The notes: generated by a model from the sequence alone, not told the origin. Shown: positions 2,788-54,722, numbered from the stretch's first letter. The stretch: DNA of 64,000 nucleotides from Paraspadella gotoi (GCA_051294375.1 CM119268.1:1757486-1821485); one strand, 5' to 3'. Numbers and translations are program-made.

Positions 2788-3120
2788 ACTCTCTCTTTAT
2801 TTCTTTCTGTCTTTTTCTGTCACTGTCTCTCGATCTTTAGCATCGCAGCTGTCTATCTAATCTATCTTATCTTTCTATCTTTCTATCTATTTTATCTAAT
2901 CTTGTGATTTACGAAAGCTCCCCCGTTCTACTATATGTAGTAGCTCTGATGATGTAATCGACCGGTTTTCTTCTTAAAAAAAACCGGATTTTCTCTATAA
3001 TATTGGTTGTACCAATTTCATCATCCCATCTTTTCTCCCAGCTCTTTTACGTCCTTTTTGCCACGCTAAGAAAGTTCAAAAAACTTTGCACGACAACAAC
3101 AACAACAACGATCCCTCGAA

Positions 3121-13844: not shown

Positions 13845-16800
13845 AGAGAGAGAGAGGAGAGAGAGAGAGAAAGAAAAAAAGAAGAGTGAGGGTAGATTTA
13901 ATAAAAAAGAGATAAAAAAGAAAAAACTGTGAGATGCGTACGAGTGAGAGTGAACAGAGCGGAGATGAGAGAGAGAGACGAGAGGAAATAGAAAAACTGA
14001 AAAAAAAGTATCATTCTTGCCAACTGTCTTGCACGAATGGTTTGGCTTGTAATAATTTTCGGTCACAATTTAGTTCACAGCTCAGATAGCGAAAAACGTA
14101 ATGACCAAAATCATTTCAATTCGTTATTGACTCTTTCTCTGTCTTCTCTCTTCTCTCTCTTTATCTCTCTCTCTCGAGAGAGAGAGTGAAAGAGAGACTA
14201 ACTTTGAATTGATTAATAAAATGAGGTGAGAAAAAAAGGTTTAAAAAAAAATTTGAAGCTAGACATAAAGTAAATAAATGCGTAACCAAAATAAAAAGAA
14301 AGAAACAACTAAAAAAAAAAAACAAACAAAAAAACAAAACGAAGAAACAAGGAAATCGAGCTGGCAAGAAAGCAACCGAGTGACAACTGACAAAAGAAAA
14401 GTCCCCCCCCACCAAGTCTCTGACCACGTTGACGAGCGTGAAGGGCTCCTTGACGAATCCTCGGGCGACGAAGTAGTTGAGGCTTTCGGAGTCGATCTTC
14501 GGGTCGACGAGGAGGATCGCCGCCCGCAGCGTCTCGTCCACGACCGTCTCGTCGCCTTCGGGAAGGACGAGGCTTCTCTCGATCTCACCGCAGTATTCTG
14601 AAGGGAGGGAGGGACGGGGGAAAGGGGAGAGGTAGGGGATTAGGGAGAGGGGAAGGAGGAAAGAGGGAGGGGAATAGAAAAAGGGTTGTTCACCGCGTCC
14701 CCTGGGATTAACTAAAGGCCAAATGTTCAAAAGGTTGTAGATTTGGCATGAGAGGAGATGACATAGAATTAATCTGTTTATGAGAAATTATGGAATAGAA
14801 TCATGAGAGGAATGACATAAATTAATCTGTTTATGAGAAATGGGAAATAGAATCATGAGAGGAATGACATAAATTAATCTGTTTATGAAGAAATCGAATA
14901 GAATCATGAGAGGAATGATGACATAAATTAATCTGTTTATTGAGAAATGGAAATAGAATCATGAGAGGAGATGACATTAAATTAATCTGTTTATGAGAAA
15001 TGGGAATAGAATCATGAGAGGAGATGACATGAAATTAATCTGTTTATGAGAATGGGAAATAGAATCATGAGAGGAGATGACATAAATTAATCTGTTTATG
15101 AGAAATGGAAATAGAATCATGAGAGGAGATGACATTAAATTAATCTGTTTTTACTAGAAATGGAAATAGAATCATGAGAGGAGATGACAAAATTAATCTG
15201 TTTATGAGAAATGGAAATAGAATCATTAGAGGAGATGACATAAATTAATCTGTTTTATGAGAAATGGAAAATAGAATCATGAGAGGAGATGACATGAAAT
15301 TAATCTGTTTATGAGAAATGGGAATAGAATCATGAGAGGAGATGACATAATTAATCTGTTTATGAGAAATGGAGAATAGAATCAGAGAGGAGGATGATGA
15401 CATAAATTAATCTGTTTATGAGAAATGGGAATAGAATCATGAGAGGAGATGACATAAAGTAATCTGTTTATGAGAAATGGAAATAGAATCATGAGAGGAA
15501 TGTACATAAATTAATCTGTTTATGAGAAAATGGAAATAGAATCATGAGAGAGAGATGACATTAAAAGTAATCTGTTCATGAAAAATGGGAAATAGAATCA
15601 TGAGAGGAGATACATAAATAATCTGTTCATGAGAAATGGGAATAGAATCATGAGAGGGATGACATAAAGTTAATCTGTTTATGAGAAATGGGAATAGAAT
15701 CATGAGAGGAGATGACATAAAATTAATCGTGTTTATGAGAAATGGACAACTAGAATCATTGAGAGGAGATGACCATAAAAGTAATTCTGTTCATGAGAAA
15801 TGGAATAGAATCATGAGAGGAGATGACATAAATTAATCGGTTTATGAGAAATGGGAATATAGTCAAGGAACCTTTGCGCTCGGCTTCGTCCTGCGCCTTA
15901 ATTTCGTTCATGAAAGGTCCCAAGTTTCCTTCGTCGTCTTCAGTGAAGAGCATCTGCAAAATAAACGTGAAAATAAATGTAATAATAATGAAAAATAATA
16001 AATAATTAATAATACAATATAATAATAAATAATTTGTAGACACATTTTTTTCCGCAACAAATGGTCATAGAAAACTTCGGAAAACCACCATTCGATTCGA
16101 AATAAAATTCTCTTTCGAATGATGTGCTATATGATTAACTTATTTAAAGATTTCGCTTGACCGCGGCGCGTCAAAGTTCCACATGCGTCAGATTCATTGA
16201 TTTACGTATATTTTGAAACGTTAAAGGGATCTTATGTGAATGTTTTAATCATTATGGATTGAAATGAATGTAAAACTCGATGTAGTTGTAGTTTATTAAA
16301 AATTAATAAAAAAGTATTAAGCAAAATATACCAGAAGTGTAATTTTAATATTTTTAAACCAATTTATCTTTTTCTCATGAAAGTGACGGCAGAAGCAAAC
16401 AATTCTTGCTTTGTTATTGTTAACTGAATCTTTAAACTTGAAGTTCATAAAGACACTTTGTTTGGCTTTGGGTGAGATGGACGATGTTCTTCAATGCCCT
16501 GAAGCATTGCTTCGTGTTGCGTTTTATTACGGGTTATTGAACCGTTGTAATCACTTGCAAATTTAACCACCCTCTCTGCAGCATCATTGAGTGGCGAAAA
16601 TCCATTTACAAGCTTGCAGAATGAGTGTGTAGTTGGCGTTATCATTCCATTCTTCCACAGGTTTCGACAAAAAAGATGGCTCAAAGTGACAAAGCTGTGT
16701 AAATAAATTATAATTGTCATTGAAATTAGATATAATTAAATATAAAATTATTGATAAAATATTGCAAATGAACCTGAAAAACAACCATGAATCAGCCGAA

Positions 16801-19800
16801 ATGTAATCTTCTAATTTGCTGTTTTCATATACGCGTGGTATTTCCGGCTTTCCATTTCTACTTGGACCTTTTCAGAGCTCAAGAAAGCTTCAGCCATCGC
16901 CATTCTAGTCAGATATTCGGTATGTAAATCCATCTTTCTTAGTGCAGCATGGACCCATATCGCGATCCCTTGATCGCCACGCCATTAGATCTTCATGAAG
17001 GGAGAATAAGGAATGGAGCATCCGCCATGAATGGACAGCAGAACCAGTAATAAGAAATGAATGTACAAGATGTAATAAGACATCACCCAAGACATCCATT
17101 TTTCTGCTGGTGACTCAAAAACGAAAAAATCACCAACGATCAGCATTTTGAGAATGTAGAGGCAGCTACCATCCAACGGGCGTGATTTATCGTGCTAAGC
17201 CTTTTTGTCATGGGAAGTTGAGCTTCTTTCAATAAGGAACTGAGAAGGAAAGAGACGAGATCAACTGACTTCATATTAATTTATTATGAGTGTGCTTTTG
17301 GCAATATAATGATAATTGATTTCTAAAATCTAAATAAATCTGCAAACTACAAAGCATTTTGTGCATAATTATTTATCTAATTTTACTCTATTCGTATTCT
17401 ACTAAAAATATGACATTGTAACCTTTTTCCTTAGTTTTTTGTCTGAAAAAGAGAAATTCTAGAGCTACGACATGAGCAGTCTCGTTTTTATCTCGTTGTT
17501 TTTAGGCTGAGTGTAAAAAAATGTCAAAGAACCGTTCCAATACTGCTGCCCCTTTTGGTGGTTTTGCCGGCGGTGGTCGAAAGTTCGCTAAGCGCTTGCA
17601 AATACCAAATTCGGGAAACAGAGGAAACTGTAGCAGAACGAGTGTTCATGATTAATGGACTGTCTGTAAAAAAAGATATTATCTAATAAATTAAACAAAG
17701 AATAACTATCTATCAGTCACCGAAATTTAATAATTAACTAAATTATATCGAAAAATGATAAATATTGTAACTGAAAAAAGAGTTCATTTGCATGTTGTGA
17801 TCTAGTTGCTTTCAACTCGCCTGGGTCAAGCGAAATATTTTTAGAAATGAATTAAATTATATACCAAACGAAAGAGAATTTTATTTCGAATCGAATGGTG
17901 GTTTTCCGAGTTTCTATGACCATTTGTTGCGGAAAAAAATGTGTCTAATAATTTGGCTTAATTCAAAATTTTAGATTTGGATGCAGAGTTTTATTATAGA
18001 TTTAAATTTAGAATTTAACTATTACGTATTAGTAATATTAGTAGTATTAATATTAGTAAAAACTATTACAAAACCTTGTAGTTGACGCCAGGGGCGGGGA
18101 TGGGCGTCGGTTCCAAACCCGACGCCGCCGCCGTAGAGACGGCGTCTTCGGCGACAACGCCGGAGCCTCCAGTCGACGGTGGCATCGGAAGGGTGGCTAG
18201 GATGAGAATCGGGATACAGTTGCAATATTATTTCTAAATTGGTCGCATGTGTATTGTGTAGCATGTGTATTAGGGTGGAGTGATGAAAAGATTGAGTGAT
18301 TGAACATTATTTTTTTGCTGCCTATGGACATATAATTAATGAATTTTAAATCCTTTTAAAAATTTTTTTAGCATAACAGTATAGCAAATTCAATTATTTA
18401 TGTAGTAATATCCTTATAAAATCGTTAAATTTCAAAATAATTTTTTTTTATTTTTAAGAACTGATTTGGATTCGCGGTAAAAAACTAAGAAACTTTTATA
18501 AAATATGTTATATGATATTTTAATGTTTAGATCACAAAAAATGACTAAAACGTTTTAACATATATAAGTTTCTACTACAGAGAATAAAAAAGTCAGGAAT
18601 TTTTACCTTTTTTCTTATTTTAAACATTGAAGATGACAGAATTTTTGATAACATGTTTTATATTTTTGATTCAACTTTTTATGAAGAATCTGAATCTTTA
18701 TTAAAAGTTTTATAAAAATTATTTTTAAAATTTACTATTTTATAAGGATATTACTACAAATATATTATATTTTGCTATTCTGTTCCCGAGATAATATGAA
18801 CGAAATATTTTTTGTACTAGTTAATCATACTATCTCACATCTAAATATCATTGTTCGATCATTCAAATAAATTTTTTGTTCTTGAGTGCTCCACTCTAAT
18901 GTGTATGTAGCATGTATATTTCGGGCATTTCTATAAGTTCACCCCGCCTATAAGCATGGGCCCTTCAGTCGTGACCCGGTGGCTCATTGAGTGGTGTCTA
19001 CCCTGGGGGAAACTTGAGGACGGCCGTAAACGGCCTTGGGGGCGTGGAAAACACTCAAGCCTGGTTCCGGGCCCAGGACCCGTTCCATGGCTGCAAGAGG
19101 GGGTTAAAGAAGTTGCGGATAGCACTCTTCAGTCCAGTGAGCCCCCTTAACCACACATGTTACTCTAGTTGAAATCAATACGAATCTGGAATCACAGAAA
19201 ATTATTAAATTGGCCTTTGGATTTTCTCTATCGTAATCCTTCCGTTTCCGCTCAAGACACAAACCTTCGCTGGTTCCGGTGGGCGGTGGCGCCGGCGCGT
19301 TGGTCGATCGATTCTGCGACACTGAAGGTTCCGAGATCGAGGACAATTCTTCGTCGATCTGTTGAACAGGGGGGGGTGTTGGATGAGATGGTAGGCGAGT
19401 CGGTGGAGAAAGACGATTCGATTTTGAAAAGACGTGATTATGAAATTGGTACAACCAATATAAAAATTATCCATTCATTTAATAAATAAGCTATCTTGCC
19501 CCTGACTTTGGACAGGCTTTGGTGGTTTAAGGCCTCCATCACTCTTACAAGATAATGACATAGCAGGTCCCTGCAAGCTTTCAATCAAGACTCTCTCACA
19601 GTCTCGTTTATTCACTCCCAGAGTACCTGGCTTCCCTATCAATGAAGTGGTATAATATTTCAAAGAATGTTTCAATTGTATGAAAAGACCACTTTATATA
19701 TTTTACTACTTTATTATATTTTACTTATTTTAATATAATAAATTTTTCGTTTTCTTTTTAAAAGGCTCATTCAAGCAGAGGAATCCGTTGAGTACTTCAT

Positions 19801-20652
19801 ACGATGAATGACCAATGAGAGACGATGTTAAAAAGATTTTAAAAAGTTGATGGGATCTTTATAATATTCTGTATATAATTTTTTTCTTTTTCTTTCTTTT
19901 CTTTTCCTGTTCGTTCTCAAGAGGTCGCCTCGATCTCGTCCGATGATGGATTCGGCGGCAAAAAGAAAAAAAAGATCATCGTTCGTCTCATTCCTCTTTT
20001 CGTCATTGACCGACGATCGTTCCTTCTCTTTTCACGATGACCTCCGCGTCACGTGATCGCTTCACGGGGAGAACGTTGCATATTAATCACGAGGCCATCA
20101 ACCTTTTCAAATTTATAATGGGTATACGACATTTGTGATAAAGATAAATATAATAATATATGATATACTAAAATTATATCCATAAACAGAAAGGAGTCAT
20201 AAAAAAACCTTTATCCCAAAACAAATTATCCTCTCCACCCCTTTTTGTTTTGTGTTGTATAGATGCTCCCTCTATGCTCTATTTCCTGAACACAACACTA
20301 ATTGAATCTAATACTTATGTGAAATATACTCAACCTTTATATTATTTTAATTTTTTTTTATAATTCAGTCTAATATAGTGAAACAATATTATAATATAAC
20401 AATTATAAATTGTATAAAATAATGCAATAAATAGTATTAAAATATCAACGCATGAAACGGATTGATCATGTAGCTAAAATTATTTTTAAAAAATTAATTA
20501 AAAATAATTTTAAAATAGTATTTGCAAAACGAAGGATTACCGACGCCCACGTGCGAAATTTCTTTTCCTTCTGATAATTCGATTTGAGATTTTATTGATT
20601 TTAAAACAACAAAAGCAATAAAAAGCTTCGACTGTGGGCGAAGTCCGCCCAC

Positions 20653-20713
<61 letters not shown>

Positions 20714-23700
20714 CTCGACCTTCGCCTTCAAAACGTCAATCCTCTCCTGCGTCTTGAAGGGAAAGAACTTCCGCAAGATGGCGACGATCTCTTCGACGGG
20801 GATGGTTCCCTCGACGCCCTCGGCCGCCGTCATTTCCGCCAACAGCGTCGTCGACGTCACGAGGAAATCGTGGTGAATCTTCTCGTCCATTTCATCCGTG
20901 ATGACGCGACGAAAGTTTTCGATCTGCGGATATCTGGATTCAATCGTAGTGAATTTAGTAAATAATCAATTATTCGAACGAATGATATATATATATATCA
21001 AACAAACAAAAAAATCATTTAAACAATCGCTTGTAAAGTAAATAAATAAATCAATCAATCGCTTAATAAATCAATCAATCAATTTGAACGAGAAAGGCTC
21101 TACTTCCCCGAATGCCTGACCTATAAAGCCTTCCCAAGGCGTCGTGGAGATTGTAGGCCCACTCGACGGACATCGTCTCGATCGGAAACTTCTCGCCGAG
21201 GTAGTCGGCGACGAATTCTCCCATTTTTGCCAGTTTCTTCTCTTGGCCGCCTGGCGTGAAGTTAATTAATAAATAAATAATTAATCAATAAAACAATCAT
21301 AATCGTTTTACTTTTGTCTCGTTTCGCAAGCTAAATTTTTATTTTGAGCGACAGTTCTCAATAACTTGATTATATAAGTCGAGGTAAAATTCAGTCATAC
21401 CCGCGAGTTTTTCCCGCCAGATGTCCTTGATAAGCAGCGCCGTATCGCGGCGCCCCAAGCGGCGATTCCGAACTTTTCCCTCGTAGCGGAGATAAAAGGG
21501 AATTTCGACCCCACGTCCTTTGCCTTCGAAATACTCGGCGGTGTCGCTAGTGTCGTTGCCTGGTGTTTGGTTTGGAATTGGCAAAAAAACATAAATAAAT
21601 ATCGTGTTTTATACTATAACTGCTATAAAAATGCTAAAAATAATTGGAACAGACCCTTTTTTAAAACAAAAGGACAAATTAATAAGTAATAAATTTCTTG
21701 TCCGCTTGACTCAACGAGCATTACAAAATTTTATCTCCTTACCTGAACAACGACTAACGACCATCTCCATAATTTGTGCACTTGTTTTAGCCCGAACCAT
21801 TTCGTGCCACTCGTCCACATTACCGGTAAACATTTCATAGCAAATGTCCCAATCAGGACGCGGAGTGGCGCTGCGACGCAATGTCTCGCATTCCTTTCAC
21901 AGAGAGAAAAAAAAAGGAGCAAGGTTGAGTTCCATATTAAAATTGCAAAATGACTTGTTTTAAATATTTTACGAAAGCATTACATGTAATTTTGATATCT
22001 AATTTTTAAAAAAATTCGTGACGGACCTGGTTAAGCTCATCCCTCTGACGACAGGCTTCGGCATGAGCTGCGACGAGCGCTTCGTGATCCTCGCGAAGCT
22101 GCTTCAAGTCGTCCGTCGTCGACTCGCTCATCTCTTGGAGGTCGTTGAACCGTTTCTCGAGGTTCTCGAAGTCTCGTCGGGGAATGACGTCCTAGGAAAC
22201 GGACATATAAATGAATAAATAAATGAATGATTGAATGAATGAATGAATGAATGAATGAATAAAACATAAATAAATATATAAGTACATAAATACCTGATAG
22301 TTGGCTTCCATCGTCTTCAGTTCCCAAGTGATTCGATCCAGATCCTCTCGGGCTTTTTTCAAGGCAATCTGGGGCGAAGAAAATCAAATGGAATAAATGT
22401 GTAACGATAATTTCGCTTTTTTAGTGTTACCTTTAGGAAGACGGGATCGCCTTCGTCTTTCTGCGACTGCGGCGTCCCGCTGAGTTGATTGAGAAGTTCC
22501 TCTTGTTGATAACGCAGATCGTTGATGTCGGAAATTAACATTTTCCGAGCGTCGCATTCCTTTCGATAGTTTTTGTATTGTTCAGAGACTTCTTCCTGAT
22601 TTTAAGGTGTAAAGTTATAAGATTGAACAGATGGCAGATTATTCGAACTTTACAATATATTTAACATCTTCCATACATGAATATCACAATTATATGAAAA
22701 TTGTGTCAAATACAAATAATAAAGCTGTTTTGTATATCTTTAAAATTATTTTTTTATATTACGTATCTTTTCCTTTCTAATTATTTTTTCTGTATTGTTT
22801 AGTGTGTTAATTGTTGCTAATGTATTTTAACGTGGGCTTATGTTTCATTAACTTAATATGAATAAAAATAAATATACAAATACACAAACCAAACAACACC
22901 GCTCATGAGAACCCTAGATTCACAAGGTAGTTGTCTTTACCTGTAACCTCTCGACGTTAGATTGCAACGATTTCTCGTCCTCTTTAAGACGCGCAATGTG
23001 TTTTTTCAACGCGCTGTTCATTTGTTTTAATTCTAAAATCTCTTGACGTTCTTCGTCCCGAAGCGCCATCACCTGAAGACGCCATGGTTTTCAGCGAAGG
23101 ATGTCAAATGTCAAAAAGCTTTTATTTAAGCATCTTTACCTTCTGATCGCATCTCTCGGATACTGTCACGAGCATTTGTTTCAGAGGTTCCAGCTCCCTG
23201 ATCTTATCTCTAAGGTGCGTCAGCATGAGATCGTACTCGTTTTTTACCGACGCCAAGAGGGGACGGTATGTCTTGAAGTCTTGGATGAGATACTCGAACA
23301 CTTCTCGATGAACCTGCAGACGTGCTTCCGACGGACCCCTATCAGGGCAGCCCAACGCCCGTAACTCATGAGCCAAATATTTTTCCAACTGATCCAAGAA
23401 CTTTGGTTTAGGGAACGAGGGAAACTCGGCGGGGGCGTGGTAGTTGTTAGATCTGCGCGGAAAGATTATTATCGACTTCATAATATAATAATAATAATAA
23501 CAATAAAACGCCATTAAAAATTAATCAACCTTCTGTCAAGACCAACAACGGGTCCTTGGACGGCTTGGTTGCTGGCGTAGGCTGGCCAAGACTCGATTTG
23601 CTCATCGCCGCTAGACGTCAAAAACGTTCTCGACGGAAGATTGAATATTTGCCGGTCCCCCTCTATCGTGCCCACCTGCGCATGTTAACAGAAAATTAAA

Positions 23701-44413: not shown

Positions 44414-47400
44414 AATCGGGTTTTTTTTTATTTCGTTCTTTCCTTTCTATTTTCTTTCCTTTTCTATTCTTTCTTTCCTTTCTTCCTTTTTATTCTTTCT
44501 TTCCTTTCTATTCTTTCTTTCCTTTCTATTATTTCTTTATTTTATTCTTATCTTTCTCTTTTTATTTCTTTTCTTTCTTCTTTCTATTCTTTCTTTACCT
44601 TTTCTATTCTTTCTTTCCTTTCTATCATTCTTTCTTTCCTTTCTATTCATTCTTTCTTTCCTTTCTATTTTTTCTTTATATTTAATATTTATTCTTTTCG
44701 TCTTTTTCTTTCTGTTTATAAATTTTTTTTTTTTCTAAAATTGATTTTTTTTTTTTTTTTTTTTTTTCAATCCAGATTTTCTTATGCGATTGCGACGATC
44801 CTATTGCTTTTTAAGAATTTTTTTTTTAATTTTTTTGTTGGAGAGCTTATGAGTCGTGATTCTTTTATTTCCCCCTCGCCTTATTTTTATTGTTTCAGGG
44901 GCCGTCGATGTCAACATTGTTCCGGTAAAGAATGGCGCGGAGAAAGGTTATGGATCCTTTTCGAGAGGTCAGACTTTTATTTCACAGGATACGATGAAGA
45001 AATAAATTATTTATTCTTCATATCTGAGGCTTTCGTTTCTAGAACCCAAGACGGAACCGACCGACAAATTTCCCTGGGCACCATCGGGAGGTCTGGTGGG
45101 TGCGAAAAGCCCCCTAGTGGAAAGAAATGAAAACAATGTACGCATCAACGGCGGAAACGATTCCGCAACGAAGTCTAATCGGCAAAAGGTGAGTTGGAAG
45201 GCAATTGTCTCACTCTCCATCTAGCATCTTTATTTAACTTTTTTTCTGACTTACAGAGCGGGCGCAGAGTAGTGGGTGACTCGCTCACAACGCTCTTGGA
45301 CGAATCCGACCGAATGATCGGTAGGAGGAACGACGGCGGACAATACGCCCGCAAAGAATCCGGGCGTGGCCCTCGTCAAAACGGAAGCGACGATCGAGGA
45401 ACAACGGTGAGTCCCAAGTCCCGATTCGCGGTTCCCTATAGAAGTTAAGTTAAATCGCATTTTATTCTTTTCTTCTTTCAGGATGGGACGTCTAGTCGGG
45501 AGCCGTCGGGAACCAAAACTAATTGGCGTCGTCGCTGGGGGCAAAACGTCAAACTTTACGATTCCATTTCAGATTTAGATGGAATTGATTCCACAGGTTT
45601 GAATCGCGACTCAATCCAAACAACTGATTTAAATAATCGGACGGAATTACATTTTTTTTTTCTTTTTTTGCTGTATTTAGAATCGGCGTCGAACCGTAAC
45701 GCTAATGCTCGACGGTTATCGAACGAGGGCCGCGACGCCGGGGACCACGTCGGCCGACCGCAGCAGCAGCAGCAAACGCAGCATCAACTACCACAACACA
45801 AGCGACAACAGCACCAGAGCGTCAATTCGGGAAACGGTCGTGTCGGCGGCAGAGGGCGTTGGGCGGTCGGCTTGCACGACGACAGCTTGGAGATGGCCTT
45901 CGGCAGCATGGGCAGTGGTCAAAGCACCGGCGACAGAGGGGAACAGGTGAAAGAAAGTCATCAAAGAATTTTATTAGTCGCAGGATGGCTTAATTGTTTG
46001 TTTTTTTTTTTGGTTTTTTTTTCGTTTTTTTTTTGCGTCCAACAGGGTCGGGAAAACATTTCGAAGTTGATCTCGGGTGGAGGGCAACGTTCGGGCCTCT
46101 CCGGGAACGGAACTGCCAAACTGCATTACATGAGCACCGCCAGATACGTTCCCGGTAAATGTGATCAGATTTATTTTTACCTTTTGGTATGTATGTACTA
46201 GAACAGCGGTAATATTGCTCGCAAACTCGGGTTGGTTTTAAAGGCGTAAACCCGTTGAAAGTTTCGTCGGACAATCGATCGCGTCGAGGGTCAAAGTCTT
46301 GCCCTCGGGATGTTGCGTCTCATCTCCCGGGCACCGACCCAGTTACTCAGCGGAAATACTTTCATCCCAATTCCCTAGTTTCTCTCCCCTCCAACAATAC
46401 GAATCCGATCGCGGTCAAGATTTCGGATGGGTTGAATGTCGATCCCAGCAGTTCTAGCACGATAAGAAAGTCCAAAGAAAAGTGGCAAGGTTTTTTTCTT
46501 CCCGATACGTTTCTTTTGCCCTTGATTGTGCAATGCATTAAAAAGTATATTTTGAGTTTTAAAAGCGTTTACTGCTATTGATAAATAATCACTATGTAGA
46601 AATCGGAAACGTGGTTTAAATTTCCCACAGATCCCTGTGATCCGAGAGATCTTTTCGATTCTTTTTCGATAAGCCTTAACCAAGAATTGCAAGGTTTTTT
46701 TTTTAGTTGTCCTCGTCTCTCAATTGAAGCTTTTTTTTTTTTTTTTGCACAATTTTTATCTATTCTTTGTTACGATTTCTTTAATTGTTTTAACCCATTT
46801 TCTTTCATCACTTTTCCCTCTCGCCCTTCAATTTCAGGTTCAACTTCGAGCGGCCAATACAAGCCGCTGGGCGCCGACTCGAGAAGCAGCGGCGTCGGGT
46901 CCGGATTCGGTTCCGGTTTGGGATCCGGAATTTCCAAAGCCTCTGGAGTCGGCACCGGCTGGGGCAGTCGAAATCTGCTAGGGGCTAAGGTTGAAATTAT
47001 TAGGGGGGTGGGGAACATCAGTTTAGCCGGAGACAAGTTTATGACTAACACCACAATTTATTAATAGGAACCCGCTTTGACGGTCAAAGGCGGCGCCTCT
47101 TCTGTCTCGGCGCCGGCCGGATCCACTTCCGGATTCGGCGGCTCGTATCGCCCTTCCGTCGCCAGTGCAGCCTCCGCGTCCGGTCGGACCGATTGGGCAG
47201 CCAAGTGAGGACATTGGACCTTATTTATTTAGTCCTTTTATTAAAAAAGGATGTAAAATTAAAATTGAAGAGATAGTTTAAGTGTAATGAGTTAAAAATA
47301 GAACACTTATGGGCAGTCCCTGAGCTTCGGATCATGCTGTAACACCAAGTTAAAGGCAGGTTAAGCGCCCCGTCCCTCTTAACTGCTAGGCGGCCACCGG

Positions 47401-47541
47401 GCTAGAACTCCGCTCCTTGGGGTTAGGAAGCGAATGACTTGCCTCCTGCGCCAATGGCCGCTGATGAACGGTTGGTGAATTTCAGTCCACCATAAAACCT
47501 TATAATCTTTTGCTGTTTTCAGGTATCTTCGCCAAACATGA
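37777..47541 (+). CDS. MAK: MAK/ICK(CILK1)-family ciliary Ser/Thr kinase, multi-exon
   Basis: [13 protein letters not shown]; [10 protein letters not shown]; [27 protein letters not shown] (TDY motif); C-terminal GRTDWAAK|YLRQT*. Confidence 0.92.
40650..42849 (-). CDS. Nested antisense type-I membrane protein with two Ig domains (inside a MAK intron; 3' end approximate)
   Basis: Signal exon 42738-42849. Ig1: [29 protein letters not shown]. Ig2: [33 protein letters not shown] segment [23 protein letters not shown] followed by HHKNKRK. Splice phases are consistent. Confidence 0.8.
44320..44700. repeat. (CT)n and (TTTC/TTCT)n low-complexity tract
   Basis: Seen directly. Confidence 0.85.
47313..47386 (-). 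ncRNA. P5-type twister ribozyme candidate B
   Basis: Minus strand: GCAGU-uaag-AGG-GA-CGGG-gcgcu-UAA-CCU-GC-[P3 cuuuaac..guuacag]-c-AUGA-UCCG-AA-GC-UCAG-gg-ACUGC. Confidence 0.72.
47392..47459 (-). mobile_element. tRNA-derived (SINE-like) head directly upstream of twister B
   Basis: Minus strand: GGCCAT-TGGCGCAGGAGG (A-box-like)..GAGTTCTAGCCC (B-box-like)-GGTGGCC, with an acceptor-like stem GGCCA/TGGCC. Confidence 0.55.
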
Positions 47542-48388
47542 TGGCGACGAAGGAAGCATAAGCCGTAGCCCCAATCTCTAGTCATTCTCCATCTGAAGCA
47601 GCAGCCATATAACCGAGTTCCTTTTTTTTTTCTTTTCAATCTCTTTCTTTCAAGCTTTCTCTCTGCAGCTTTCAGCGTCCCGTTATTCATAAATAACTTA
47701 CTCGAAAGAATGTTAATCCCTTGCCTGTTAAGTTTGAAAAGATTTGAATGAAATCTAATTTCATGAAGATGATTAAAACTAGGAGGATGCTTTATTCAAA
47801 AAAATAAGTTTTAACAAAACTGTTTTGTTTTTTCCGAGTTGTTTTAAAGGGGAAACTCCCTTTATTCCTCAACCATGAATATTGTTATTTATTTTCGTAT
47901 TTACTAACCAGTTTAGCAGTTTTATTTTTTTTTTTGCCAAATTTTTTTTTGTCAAAATCTACGTTTGACTGTTTTTTATTGTAAATACACTAATAGCCTC
48001 ACCAAAAAAAAGAAAAAACAATTAAAGAACTAATCAAAGTTAGTATAGCGCAAAAGAGCTAGCCATTATACTCGTCATTTATATAAATCCCAAAATGACA
48101 TGAATTGAATGTAGTATTTATGCAATCTTTCGTTAAAGAAAAAGTATAAACTTTCTGAAAGTAAGTTTCAAACTTTTAAGTTGGGATTTGTTCCTTTGTT
48201 TTTGTTGGATAGAGAAGAAGAGAGTTCGTTCACGTCTGGAACAGAGAGAACAGTCGGAGGCGAAGATCCGAACCCGAGTCCCGAGAGAACAACCAATTTC
48301 CCGGCCAAAACAAACGTGGTTTTTTTTTCTGCATATTAATAATAATAATTAATAATTTATTATACACCAATTCTCCCCTTAAGTTGCT

Positions 48389-48628
48389 TATGAAATTGGT
48401 ACAACCAAATATAACAATTATCCAATATCCATTCATTTAAAATTAGCCAAATAAGCTATTTCCCCTGTCTTTGAACAGGCTTTGATGCTTAAGCCTCCAT
48501 AGCAGGTCCCTGCGAGATTTCAATCAAGACACACACAGTCTCGTTTATTTCACTCCCAGAGTACCTGGCTTCCCTATCAGTGAAGCGGTATGTTTCAAAG
48601 AATGTTTCAATTGTATGAAAAGACCACT
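48389..48628 (-). repeat. Dispersed ~240-bp element (copy 2), twister part disrupted
   Basis: Homologous to 19439-19693. It lacks the P5/P2' segment and has substitutions in loop L4. Confidence 0.85.
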
Positions 48629-48959
48629 CCCTAAAGTATTGTACTCCTTATATATCCTTATACTGATATATATACTTCCTTATTCTGATCACGGGTGAGG
48701 ATCAATTAAGTTGCGACCAAATTGGCCAAATCTGTTTTAGCCAATCCGGGAAAACTATTACACTTCTCAACTAGAATTTGAGAGTGAGTGAGACATGCAG
48801 TGCCGTAGGGGGGGGAGTGTAGGGTGTTGGCAATGGGAGATGGACATTTTAAAAGATGAAAGAAAAGGTAGCAAACTGATTGTCAATGAAACCGCCCTTC
48901 ACGATTATTCCAACTTTTTTCTCTGAAATAGAAAAAAAAAAGTAAATCTTTTTTGGAAA

Positions 48960-51196: not shown

Positions 51197-54722
<3,526 letters not shown>

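Follow-up and report, generated by a model that had tools for sequence, protein, structure and literature searches.

An intron in a 64,000-nucleotide stretch of Paraspadella gotoi DNA (GCA_051294375.1 CM119268.1:1757486-1821485, hereafter the window) contains a repeated element with an RNA fold of the self-cleaving twister type. The locus raises the question of whether this fold is a genuine twister and, if so, how a repeat can carry a self-cleaving RNA and be copied with the ribozyme whole. Our main reading, to which we assign a probability of about 0.5, is that a P5-permuted twister with a palindromic P1 resides in a non-coding retroposon moved by a Penelope-type partner and cuts efficiently only when two copies pair.

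A type-P5 twister fold in a TSNAXIP1 intron

We checked the fold at 19492..19554 pair by pair and found every pairing listed in an initial annotation of the window on the minus strand. The type-P5-permuted twister fold is closed by an 8-bp P5 (19554-19547 with 19499-19492), in which all eight positions pair, seven as Watson-Crick pairs and one as U.G. P4, formed by CCUG/CAGG at 19501..19516, is likewise complete (4/4) and carries the 8-nt loop L4, UCCAAAGU, which spans 19512-19505 and has the layout U, three T1 bases, AA, two T2 bases. As in type-P5 twisters, a G-C pair lies beside L4 in P4 and the termini lie in P5. The core comprises the conserved GA at 19540-39, which together with the T1 strand UGG occupies 19536..19540, and UAA at 19527..19529. 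G19540 is predicted to be the general base by analogy with the twister described in PMC5408937, and cleavage is predicted between U19529 and A19528, as placed by alignment to RF02684.

The T1 strand UGG pairs with CCA at 19511-19509. A perfect UGGA/UCCA pseudoknot had been annotated here, and all four positions are indeed complementary, but T1 proper is UGG/CCA, with three Watson-Crick pairs. Twister crystal structures, in the part of PMC5408937 covered, show four pairs in P2 and, in T1, three Watson-Crick pairs together with one A.A pair, so that the fourth UGGA/UCCA pair involves the first base of P1. The 2-bp pseudoknot and the short linker are present as described: the T2 strand AC and a minimal P3, C-AAA-G, occupy 19517..19523, AC pairs with GU at 19506-19505 (2/2), and the CAAAG linker is closed by a C-G pair, standing in for P3.

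At gathering score, Rfam returned no match anywhere in the window. The best match for the fold was Twister-P5 (RF02684), with 25.8 bits against a cut-off of 37.6 and an E value of 0.32 for the whole window or 0.0015 for 291 nt. Folding energy was unremarkable (z -0.49), as is expected of a double pseudoknot. A strict P5-twister descriptor, composed after the three motifs were known and hence a lenient control, matched three times in the window (GA at 19540 minus, 47374 minus and 51854 plus), compared with four matches in 60 block-wise dinucleotide shuffles; none of these four had a P1 of 8 nt or less.

Family contigs from the sequencing runs of organism A vary at 5% or more at only two sites within 19492-19554, and no insertions were listed among them in this interval. 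At 19499 the U.G pair of P5 is replaced by U-A in 15% of run X2, and at 19543 the unpaired A of P2 is replaced by U in 10% of the same run. The annotation had named loss of the core from the family as grounds for rejecting the fold; the family majority keeps GA, UAA, AA, T1, T2, P4 and P5. Variant sites number 2/63 in the twister and 14/187 in the rest of the element, a difference that is not significant (p 0.37). The minus strand at 19554..19492 carries a genuine twister-type fold.

The fold lies sense in its host gene, as had been stated. This gene, whose named homologues come almost all from animals, carries Pfam TSNAXIP1_N, and tblastn with a 781-aa relative placed exons at 20935-20717, 19361-19254, 18179-18072, 15956-15873 and 14601-14404, all on the minus strand, the same as that of the twister. 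The host intron, 19359..20719, is delimited by GT/AG ends, the open frame and tblastn, and its 3' splice site follows the predicted cut site at a distance of about 170 nt. The region around it (3000-63400) is gene-dense with small introns; an ABC transporter, TSNAXIP1 and WDR92 were identified by search, and further ORFs are what we take to be TTC21B, IFT20, a MAK/ICK kinase, RPAP3 and ALDH6A1. Other TSNAXIP1 introns have structures of their own. Inverted repeats of 95 nt (81%) bracket about 1.8 kb at 16077-17909, likely a DNA transposon, and a tandem array of about 52-53 nt units occupies 14747-15884. In the next intron lies a GC-rich structured insert (18940-19170) whose minus strand includes a hammerhead half-core, CUGAAGA; we found no GAAA partner by eye and no Rfam match for the insert at E 5.

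Two further twisters and an irregular P2

The second P5 twister in the window (47312..47388, minus; P1 GGCGCU) belongs to another high-copy repeat (47313-47494), where it follows a tRNA-like head that contains an A box. Depth over this repeat reaches 1-2.5 million, compared with 125-280 in the flanks, and the family extends 3' past the window copy. Its T1 is CGG/CCG, and the family majority at 47353 (97% or more) mends a mismatch in P3; Rfam reported no twister at 47313-47494 even at E 10. The third P5 twister (51840..51922, plus), with an 8-nt P1, UGUCGGCA, and a regular 4-bp P2, follows a tRNA-like A/B-box head. Rfam misaligns this locus (51765-51990, plus) to twister-P1 at 21.4 bits, and covariation links its P3 to the P3 of the 47.3-kb family.

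Across the three window motifs, the pairings in T1, T2, P4, P5 and P1 differ yet hold, and BLAST among the three carrier elements gave no match at E 1e-3. The twister at 19554..19492 had been taken to mark a third independent family. This applies to the carriers, which are unrelated, but the ribozymes are probably not independent, because a short palindromic P1 is common to all three and the same irregular P2 occurs in two families. A very high genome-wide twister density had been suggested; a high density is plausible, the second twister locus of the window also being a high-copy repeat.

In the twister at 19554..19492, the P2 5' strand GAGU (19541..19544) pairs with ACC at 19526-19524, with A19543 either bulged, leaving a G19544-C19524 pair, or in an A.C pair. 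P2 thus has three positions, two paired and one A.C, in agreement with the single mismatch noted before and one short of the four base pairs usual in type P5. A family consensus had been expected possibly to restore P2; it does not, the family majority being equal to the window copy. With the base most common at 47358 in the 47.3-kb family (92% in X2, 99% in X3), P2 there reads GAGG/CCC and is arranged like GAGU/ACC. Since this high-copy family shares the irregularity, we regard it as a trait common to two families, not as decay, and the simplest reading appears to be an A bulge backed by a G-C pair. A suggestion that altered P2 length disturbs the twister active site is on record (in the part of PMC5408937 covered).

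The AC/GU pseudoknot and the short linker, previously singled out as remarkable, both turned out to occur in phage twisters. AC/GU was found in T2 of two P5-type phage loci, perfectly paired in both (2/2), and of 21 of the 44 P1-type loci that passed the helix filter (20 distinct cores), with 5-nt C...G linkers in five of these 21. The AC/GU pseudoknot itself is therefore not new. Many dispersed P1-type twisters with an AC/GU T2, a P2 mismatch and a weak, flank-derived P1 were also observed on contigs labelled GVMAG and on 3300017757 (L062-L101), resembling a twister-headed repeat in giant-virus bins or the hosts of these viruses.

P1 is a loopless palindrome

The unusual part of the 19554..19492 twister is P1, which the initial annotation had overlooked. 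At 19530..19535 (minus), P1 consists of the loopless palindrome AGGCCU, which is predicted to pair with a second copy and in which a hairpin would have at most one pair, closing a 4-nt loop; the intramolecular P1 hairpin of type P5 is absent. In all three window twisters (3/3), P1 is fully self-complementary, loopless and 6-8 nt long, with self-duplex energies of -9.1, -8.3 and -9.5 kcal/mol for AGGCCU, GGCGCU and UGUCGGCA, compared with +5.6, +5.6 and +2.9 kcal/mol for the respective best hairpins. The chance of three palindromic P1s is about 0.001 given the outer pair and 0.02 given two outer pairs, an estimate that weakens if the three palindromes have one origin. No P1 variants were listed in the AGGCCU family (5% cut) or in the GGCGCU family (12% cut). 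Cofolding two copies gave -39.9 kcal/mol versus -30.0 kcal/mol for two monomers, to which we attach little weight, as swapped hairpin dimers often score better.

Among phage P5 twisters, 16 of 18 loci (some of them duplicates) could be parsed. P1 was 15-25 nt long in all of them, with 4-30 nt permitted, and formed a 6-9 bp stem in 15/16; P2 had 4 bp in 15/16 and 3/4 in the remaining one, in a sample that covers canonical twisters only, as the search patterns fixed T1 as GGG/CCC. Scanning phage sequences for twisters with a short P1 and a 3-nt P2 gave four matches, none with a paired P2 (0, 1 and 0 of 3 positions in the three that were parsed). In metagenomes, a family-specific pattern gave 0 matches, and a looser pattern gave 38 stretches, of which none passed the descriptor (0/38) and none matched the window by BLAST.

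The carrier is a repeat with a sharp 3' end

The window copy of the carrier element spans 19438..19693 (minus) and is truncated at its 5' end by about 39 nt compared with longer family members, giving a full unit of about 295 nt or more. We compared family contigs in four of 17 runs, using the window copy as reference, which favours look-alike contigs, and obtained 27,171 (X2), 4,494 (X3), 1,507 (X9) and 3 contigs matching 19400-19740; runs X9, X12 and X14 are RNA by guess only. With thousands of contigs in the runs of organism A, the twister is part of a repeat family, as had been claimed. Runs of organisms B, C and D yielded one to three near-identical contigs each at low depth, representing close relatives or cross-contamination, and were excluded from the evidence. 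We estimate the family at several hundred loci at the least and likely thousands, summed contig depth being no copy number.

Contig depth is confined to 19436-19699. At the 3' end (minus sense), at least 731 contigs in X2, at least 212 in X3 and at least 114 in X9 pass sharply, at 19435-19443, into unrelated AT-rich flanks. At the far, 5' end of the window copy, at least 154 contigs (X2) and at least 31 (X3) continue with shared sequence. Summed depth declines from the 3' to the 5' end of the element, with no step across the predicted cut site (4.76M versus 4.75M in X2, 727k versus 767k in X3, and 128k versus 114k). No pile-up of contig beginnings or ends was seen at 19529/19528 among the matches listed, in contigs that show element ends unreliably and cannot show RNA ends. 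Six single contigs contain head-to-tail partial tandems, in which the element is followed by its own 3' end, and the thousands of contigs held two go-back joints and one strand switch besides; as tandem joints occur in single contigs only, most copies look solo.

Self-BLAST revealed a second family copy at 48385-48628 (77%). This copy, 48388..48647 on the minus strand, is decayed: a 24-nt deletion removes the P5 5' arm, the P2 5' strand and GA, and P1 is short of one base. A 36-nt stub at 3000..3035 (plus) consists of the 3' end of the element only. Both long copies (2/2) start directly after ATATATAA, and the family flank consensus is AT-rich, as are the introns. Neither long copy has a poly(A) or microsatellite tail, and we found no terminal inverted repeat on the element and no clear target duplication, the longest shared words being 5-6 nt and AT-rich. 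ARAGORN detected no tRNA in the element; an A box was absent and a B-box-like match had one mismatch, in a copy that lacks about 39 nt of the family 5' end. The Pol III A/B-box head and the A-rich or microsatellite tail of tRNA-derived SINEs are thus not seen here. No RT or GIY-YIG ORF was seen beside the copies in the window, and we attribute to chance both an open frame of 72 codons and a short YIG-like peptide at the element 3' end.

The element as a whole folds with z -2.11 on the minus strand, compared with -0.47 on the opposite strand. Upstream of the twister, where a long hairpin instead of a tRNA head had been annotated, a long irregular hairpin was indeed found (19560..19640, minus; z -3.55; 1/200 shuffles as good). 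No Rfam family fits this hairpin, and its layout, judged by eye, fits neither a SECIS nor a hammerhead. A 6-bp hairpin just inside the sharp 3' end (19445..19459, minus) is present in the window copy, the 48-kb copy and the 3-kb stub; it is a candidate reverse transcriptase recognition signal. In three contigs, the 3' end of the 19438..19693 element family (48386-48389) abuts the head of the 47.3-kb element (47489/47495) or lies within 25 nt of it; co-insertion by shared machinery is one possible origin of these joints.

Relation to known ribozymes and retroelements

The fold shares with type-P5 twisters (RF02684; PMC5408937 and PMC6154101, as far as these sources were covered) the strand order, GA and UAA in L1, a 3-bp T1, a 2-bp T2, a P4 with an 8-nt loop and the closing P5. 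It departs from them in that a 6-nt loopless palindrome at 19530..19535 replaces a P1 hairpin of 15-25 nt, that P2 is irregular, with three positions and an A that is bulged or mismatched, and that the carrier is an animal repeat rather than a phage, with a score under the cut-off. We therefore file it as a variant of the type-P5 twister, as it lacks the P1 hairpin, the 4-bp P2 and the Rfam score.

Minimal type I hammerheads of Penelope-like elements (PLEs) and non-LTR retrozymes, as described in the covered parts of PMC6765202, PMC7761336 and bioRxiv 10.64898/2026.07.22.740005, likewise lie inside a short repeat unit, have one helix shortened to a palindromic stem whose loop is very short, and occur in many solo copies. 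For these, dimer cleavage in tandem transcripts has been proposed, as we propose it for the 19554..19492 twister; in Penelope hammerheads it is stem III that is palindromic, with a very short loop, and they are thought to cleave as dimers (PMC6765202, PMC7761336, in part). Here, in contrast, a twister takes the place of the hammerhead, P1 is the palindromic helix, and most copies look dispersed and not tandemly arranged. Naiad PLEs (Craig et al. 2021, part of PMC8557442) resemble the element in 5' truncation, very high invertebrate copy number and the lack of a canonical hammerhead, and possibly also in partial tandems and a TA-rich insertion context. Our element, however, has no attached ORF that could carry the protein features by which Naiads are defined, the likeness being one of anatomy. 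The covered part of the Naiad paper reports no ribozyme beyond hammerhead cores.

Retroelement twisters with a weak or variable P1 are also found among the Perere-3 T-variants of Schistosoma mansoni (PMC8501958, in part) and the truncated twisters at RTE 5' ends (in the covered part of PMC7761336). According to these sources, such twisters are of type P1, lie at the 5' end and define the insertion start, whereas ours belongs to type P5 and lies within the element, 90 nt short of its 3' end, and depth is even across 19529/19528, with no sign of copies starting at the cut site among the matches listed. Within the sources covered, a literature search found no dimeric or palindromic-P1 twister described, although the type-P5 alignments of Roth et al. 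might hold short-P1 members, and no twister described in PLEs. In two recent preprints, twisters are not a topic of the main text (term counts 0, and 1 in the reference list).

Proposed copy-dependent cleavage and its alternatives

We think it likely that the element spreads by retrotransposition, and its anatomy alone tilts us towards a Penelope-type partner as its mover. Whether cleavage of the 19554..19492 twister is enhanced by dimerization we consider an even bet. Where units follow one another in a transcript, an ordinary open-P1 twister with a 6-bp P1 would assemble from the 3' half of the first and the 5' half of its successor, cutting the RNA into unit lengths. A lone unit could not form the 6-bp P1 helix and, linear or re-ligated, would remain mostly uncut, which would also account for the tolerance of a solo sense copy in the TSNAXIP1 intron. 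Copying of the uncut unit would then begin at a fixed point, about 90 nt beyond the cut site on the 3' side, and copies would for this reason carry the whole ribozyme.

Several features of the element are consistent with this sequence of events. The element shows 5' truncation with a fixed 3' end, a Penelope-like trait, and the falling depth and the 3'-only stub match what such truncation predicts. In the anole PLE, reverse transcription starts internally, mainly on uncut RNA, and no reads end at the hammerhead site (in the covered part of PMC11167929), behaviour that fits an element whose ribozyme is intact and whose 3' end is fixed 90 nt beyond it. Both sister twisters are preceded by Pol III-like heads of the kind seen in SINEs, a point against the Penelope link.

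The twister might instead be active as a monomer, only slower, through an A-U pair closing a GGCC loop or through an unpaired tether, with the palindrome being incidental and the repeat spreading via RNAs left uncut or closed again into circles by ligation. A single unit tethered by 6 nt may indeed be enough for cleavage, given that P1 is dispensable in vitro at near wild-type rate (PMC5408937 and also PMC6154101, each in part) and that P1 imperfections brought no drop in cleavage among about 1,950 type-P1 twisters, in which P2 imperfections were also well tolerated (in the covered part of PMC11662667). Our fold shows no defect in either pseudoknot, the G, AA or the last P4 pair, and the compact rod fold of the element (z -2.11) is like that of circular retrozyme RNAs. 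We nevertheless hold the monomer to be rather unlikely as the full account: it leaves unexplained both the complete self-complementarity of three different P1 sequences (3/3) and the even depth across the cut site, and we would expect rapid monomer cleavage to carry a cost where the intron is sense and a splice site is 170 nt away.

An Rfam score under the cut-off, a short P2, the missing P1 hairpin, copies that are not cut at the predicted site and a core without significant excess conservation (p 0.37) would all suit a catalytically dead or protein-dependent twister relic, retained as a binding or packaging signal for a partner retroelement protein or through inheritance in a young family. 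The anole PLE hammerhead offers a precedent, as it cuts only with protein and is unneeded for insertion in vitro (PMC11167929, in part). Such a relic is nonetheless improbable in our estimate, since compensatory changes preserve the catalytic positions and both pseudoknots in all three carriers, unrelated as these are, a pattern that speaks for selection on the active fold. Lastly, the carrier could be an ordinary LINE-dependent SINE or a non-retro element, for example a rolling-circle DNA element, with a twister unrelated to PLEs: no PLE ORF was seen in the window, the sister twisters follow Pol III-like heads, and a hairpin near the 3' end also suits rolling-circle elements. The element, however, shows no A box, poly(A) or microsatellite tail, terminal inverted repeat or clear target duplication, and known LINE twisters, as described in part of PMC8501958, sit 5' and have copies starting at the cut site, unlike our element, making this origin very unlikely.

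Implications

Returning to the palindromic-P1 twister that cuts when two copies pair, we tentatively suggest, at somewhat less than even odds, that animal genomes hold a class of dimer-dependent, P5-permuted twisters that sense tandem copies and would have, for Naiad-type Penelope elements and their non-coding parasites, the role that palindromic hammerheads have for other Penelope elements. Its members would have a loopless palindromic P1, often with a bulged 3-bp P2, and would cut only in tandem copies. The 19438..19693 family would then be a 'twister retrozyme' with thousands of copies, missed by the Rfam cut-off, and many animal twisters would score under that cut-off. A second ribozyme class would have converged on the copy-counting trick of minimal hammerheads. 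This would fill a gap at PLEs reported without hammerheads and provide a handle on the open question of the role of ribozymes in PLEs, and a 63-nt RNA that needs two copies to pair could act as a proximity switch. Should the monomer cut by itself, the family would still spread many self-cleaving sites into introns.
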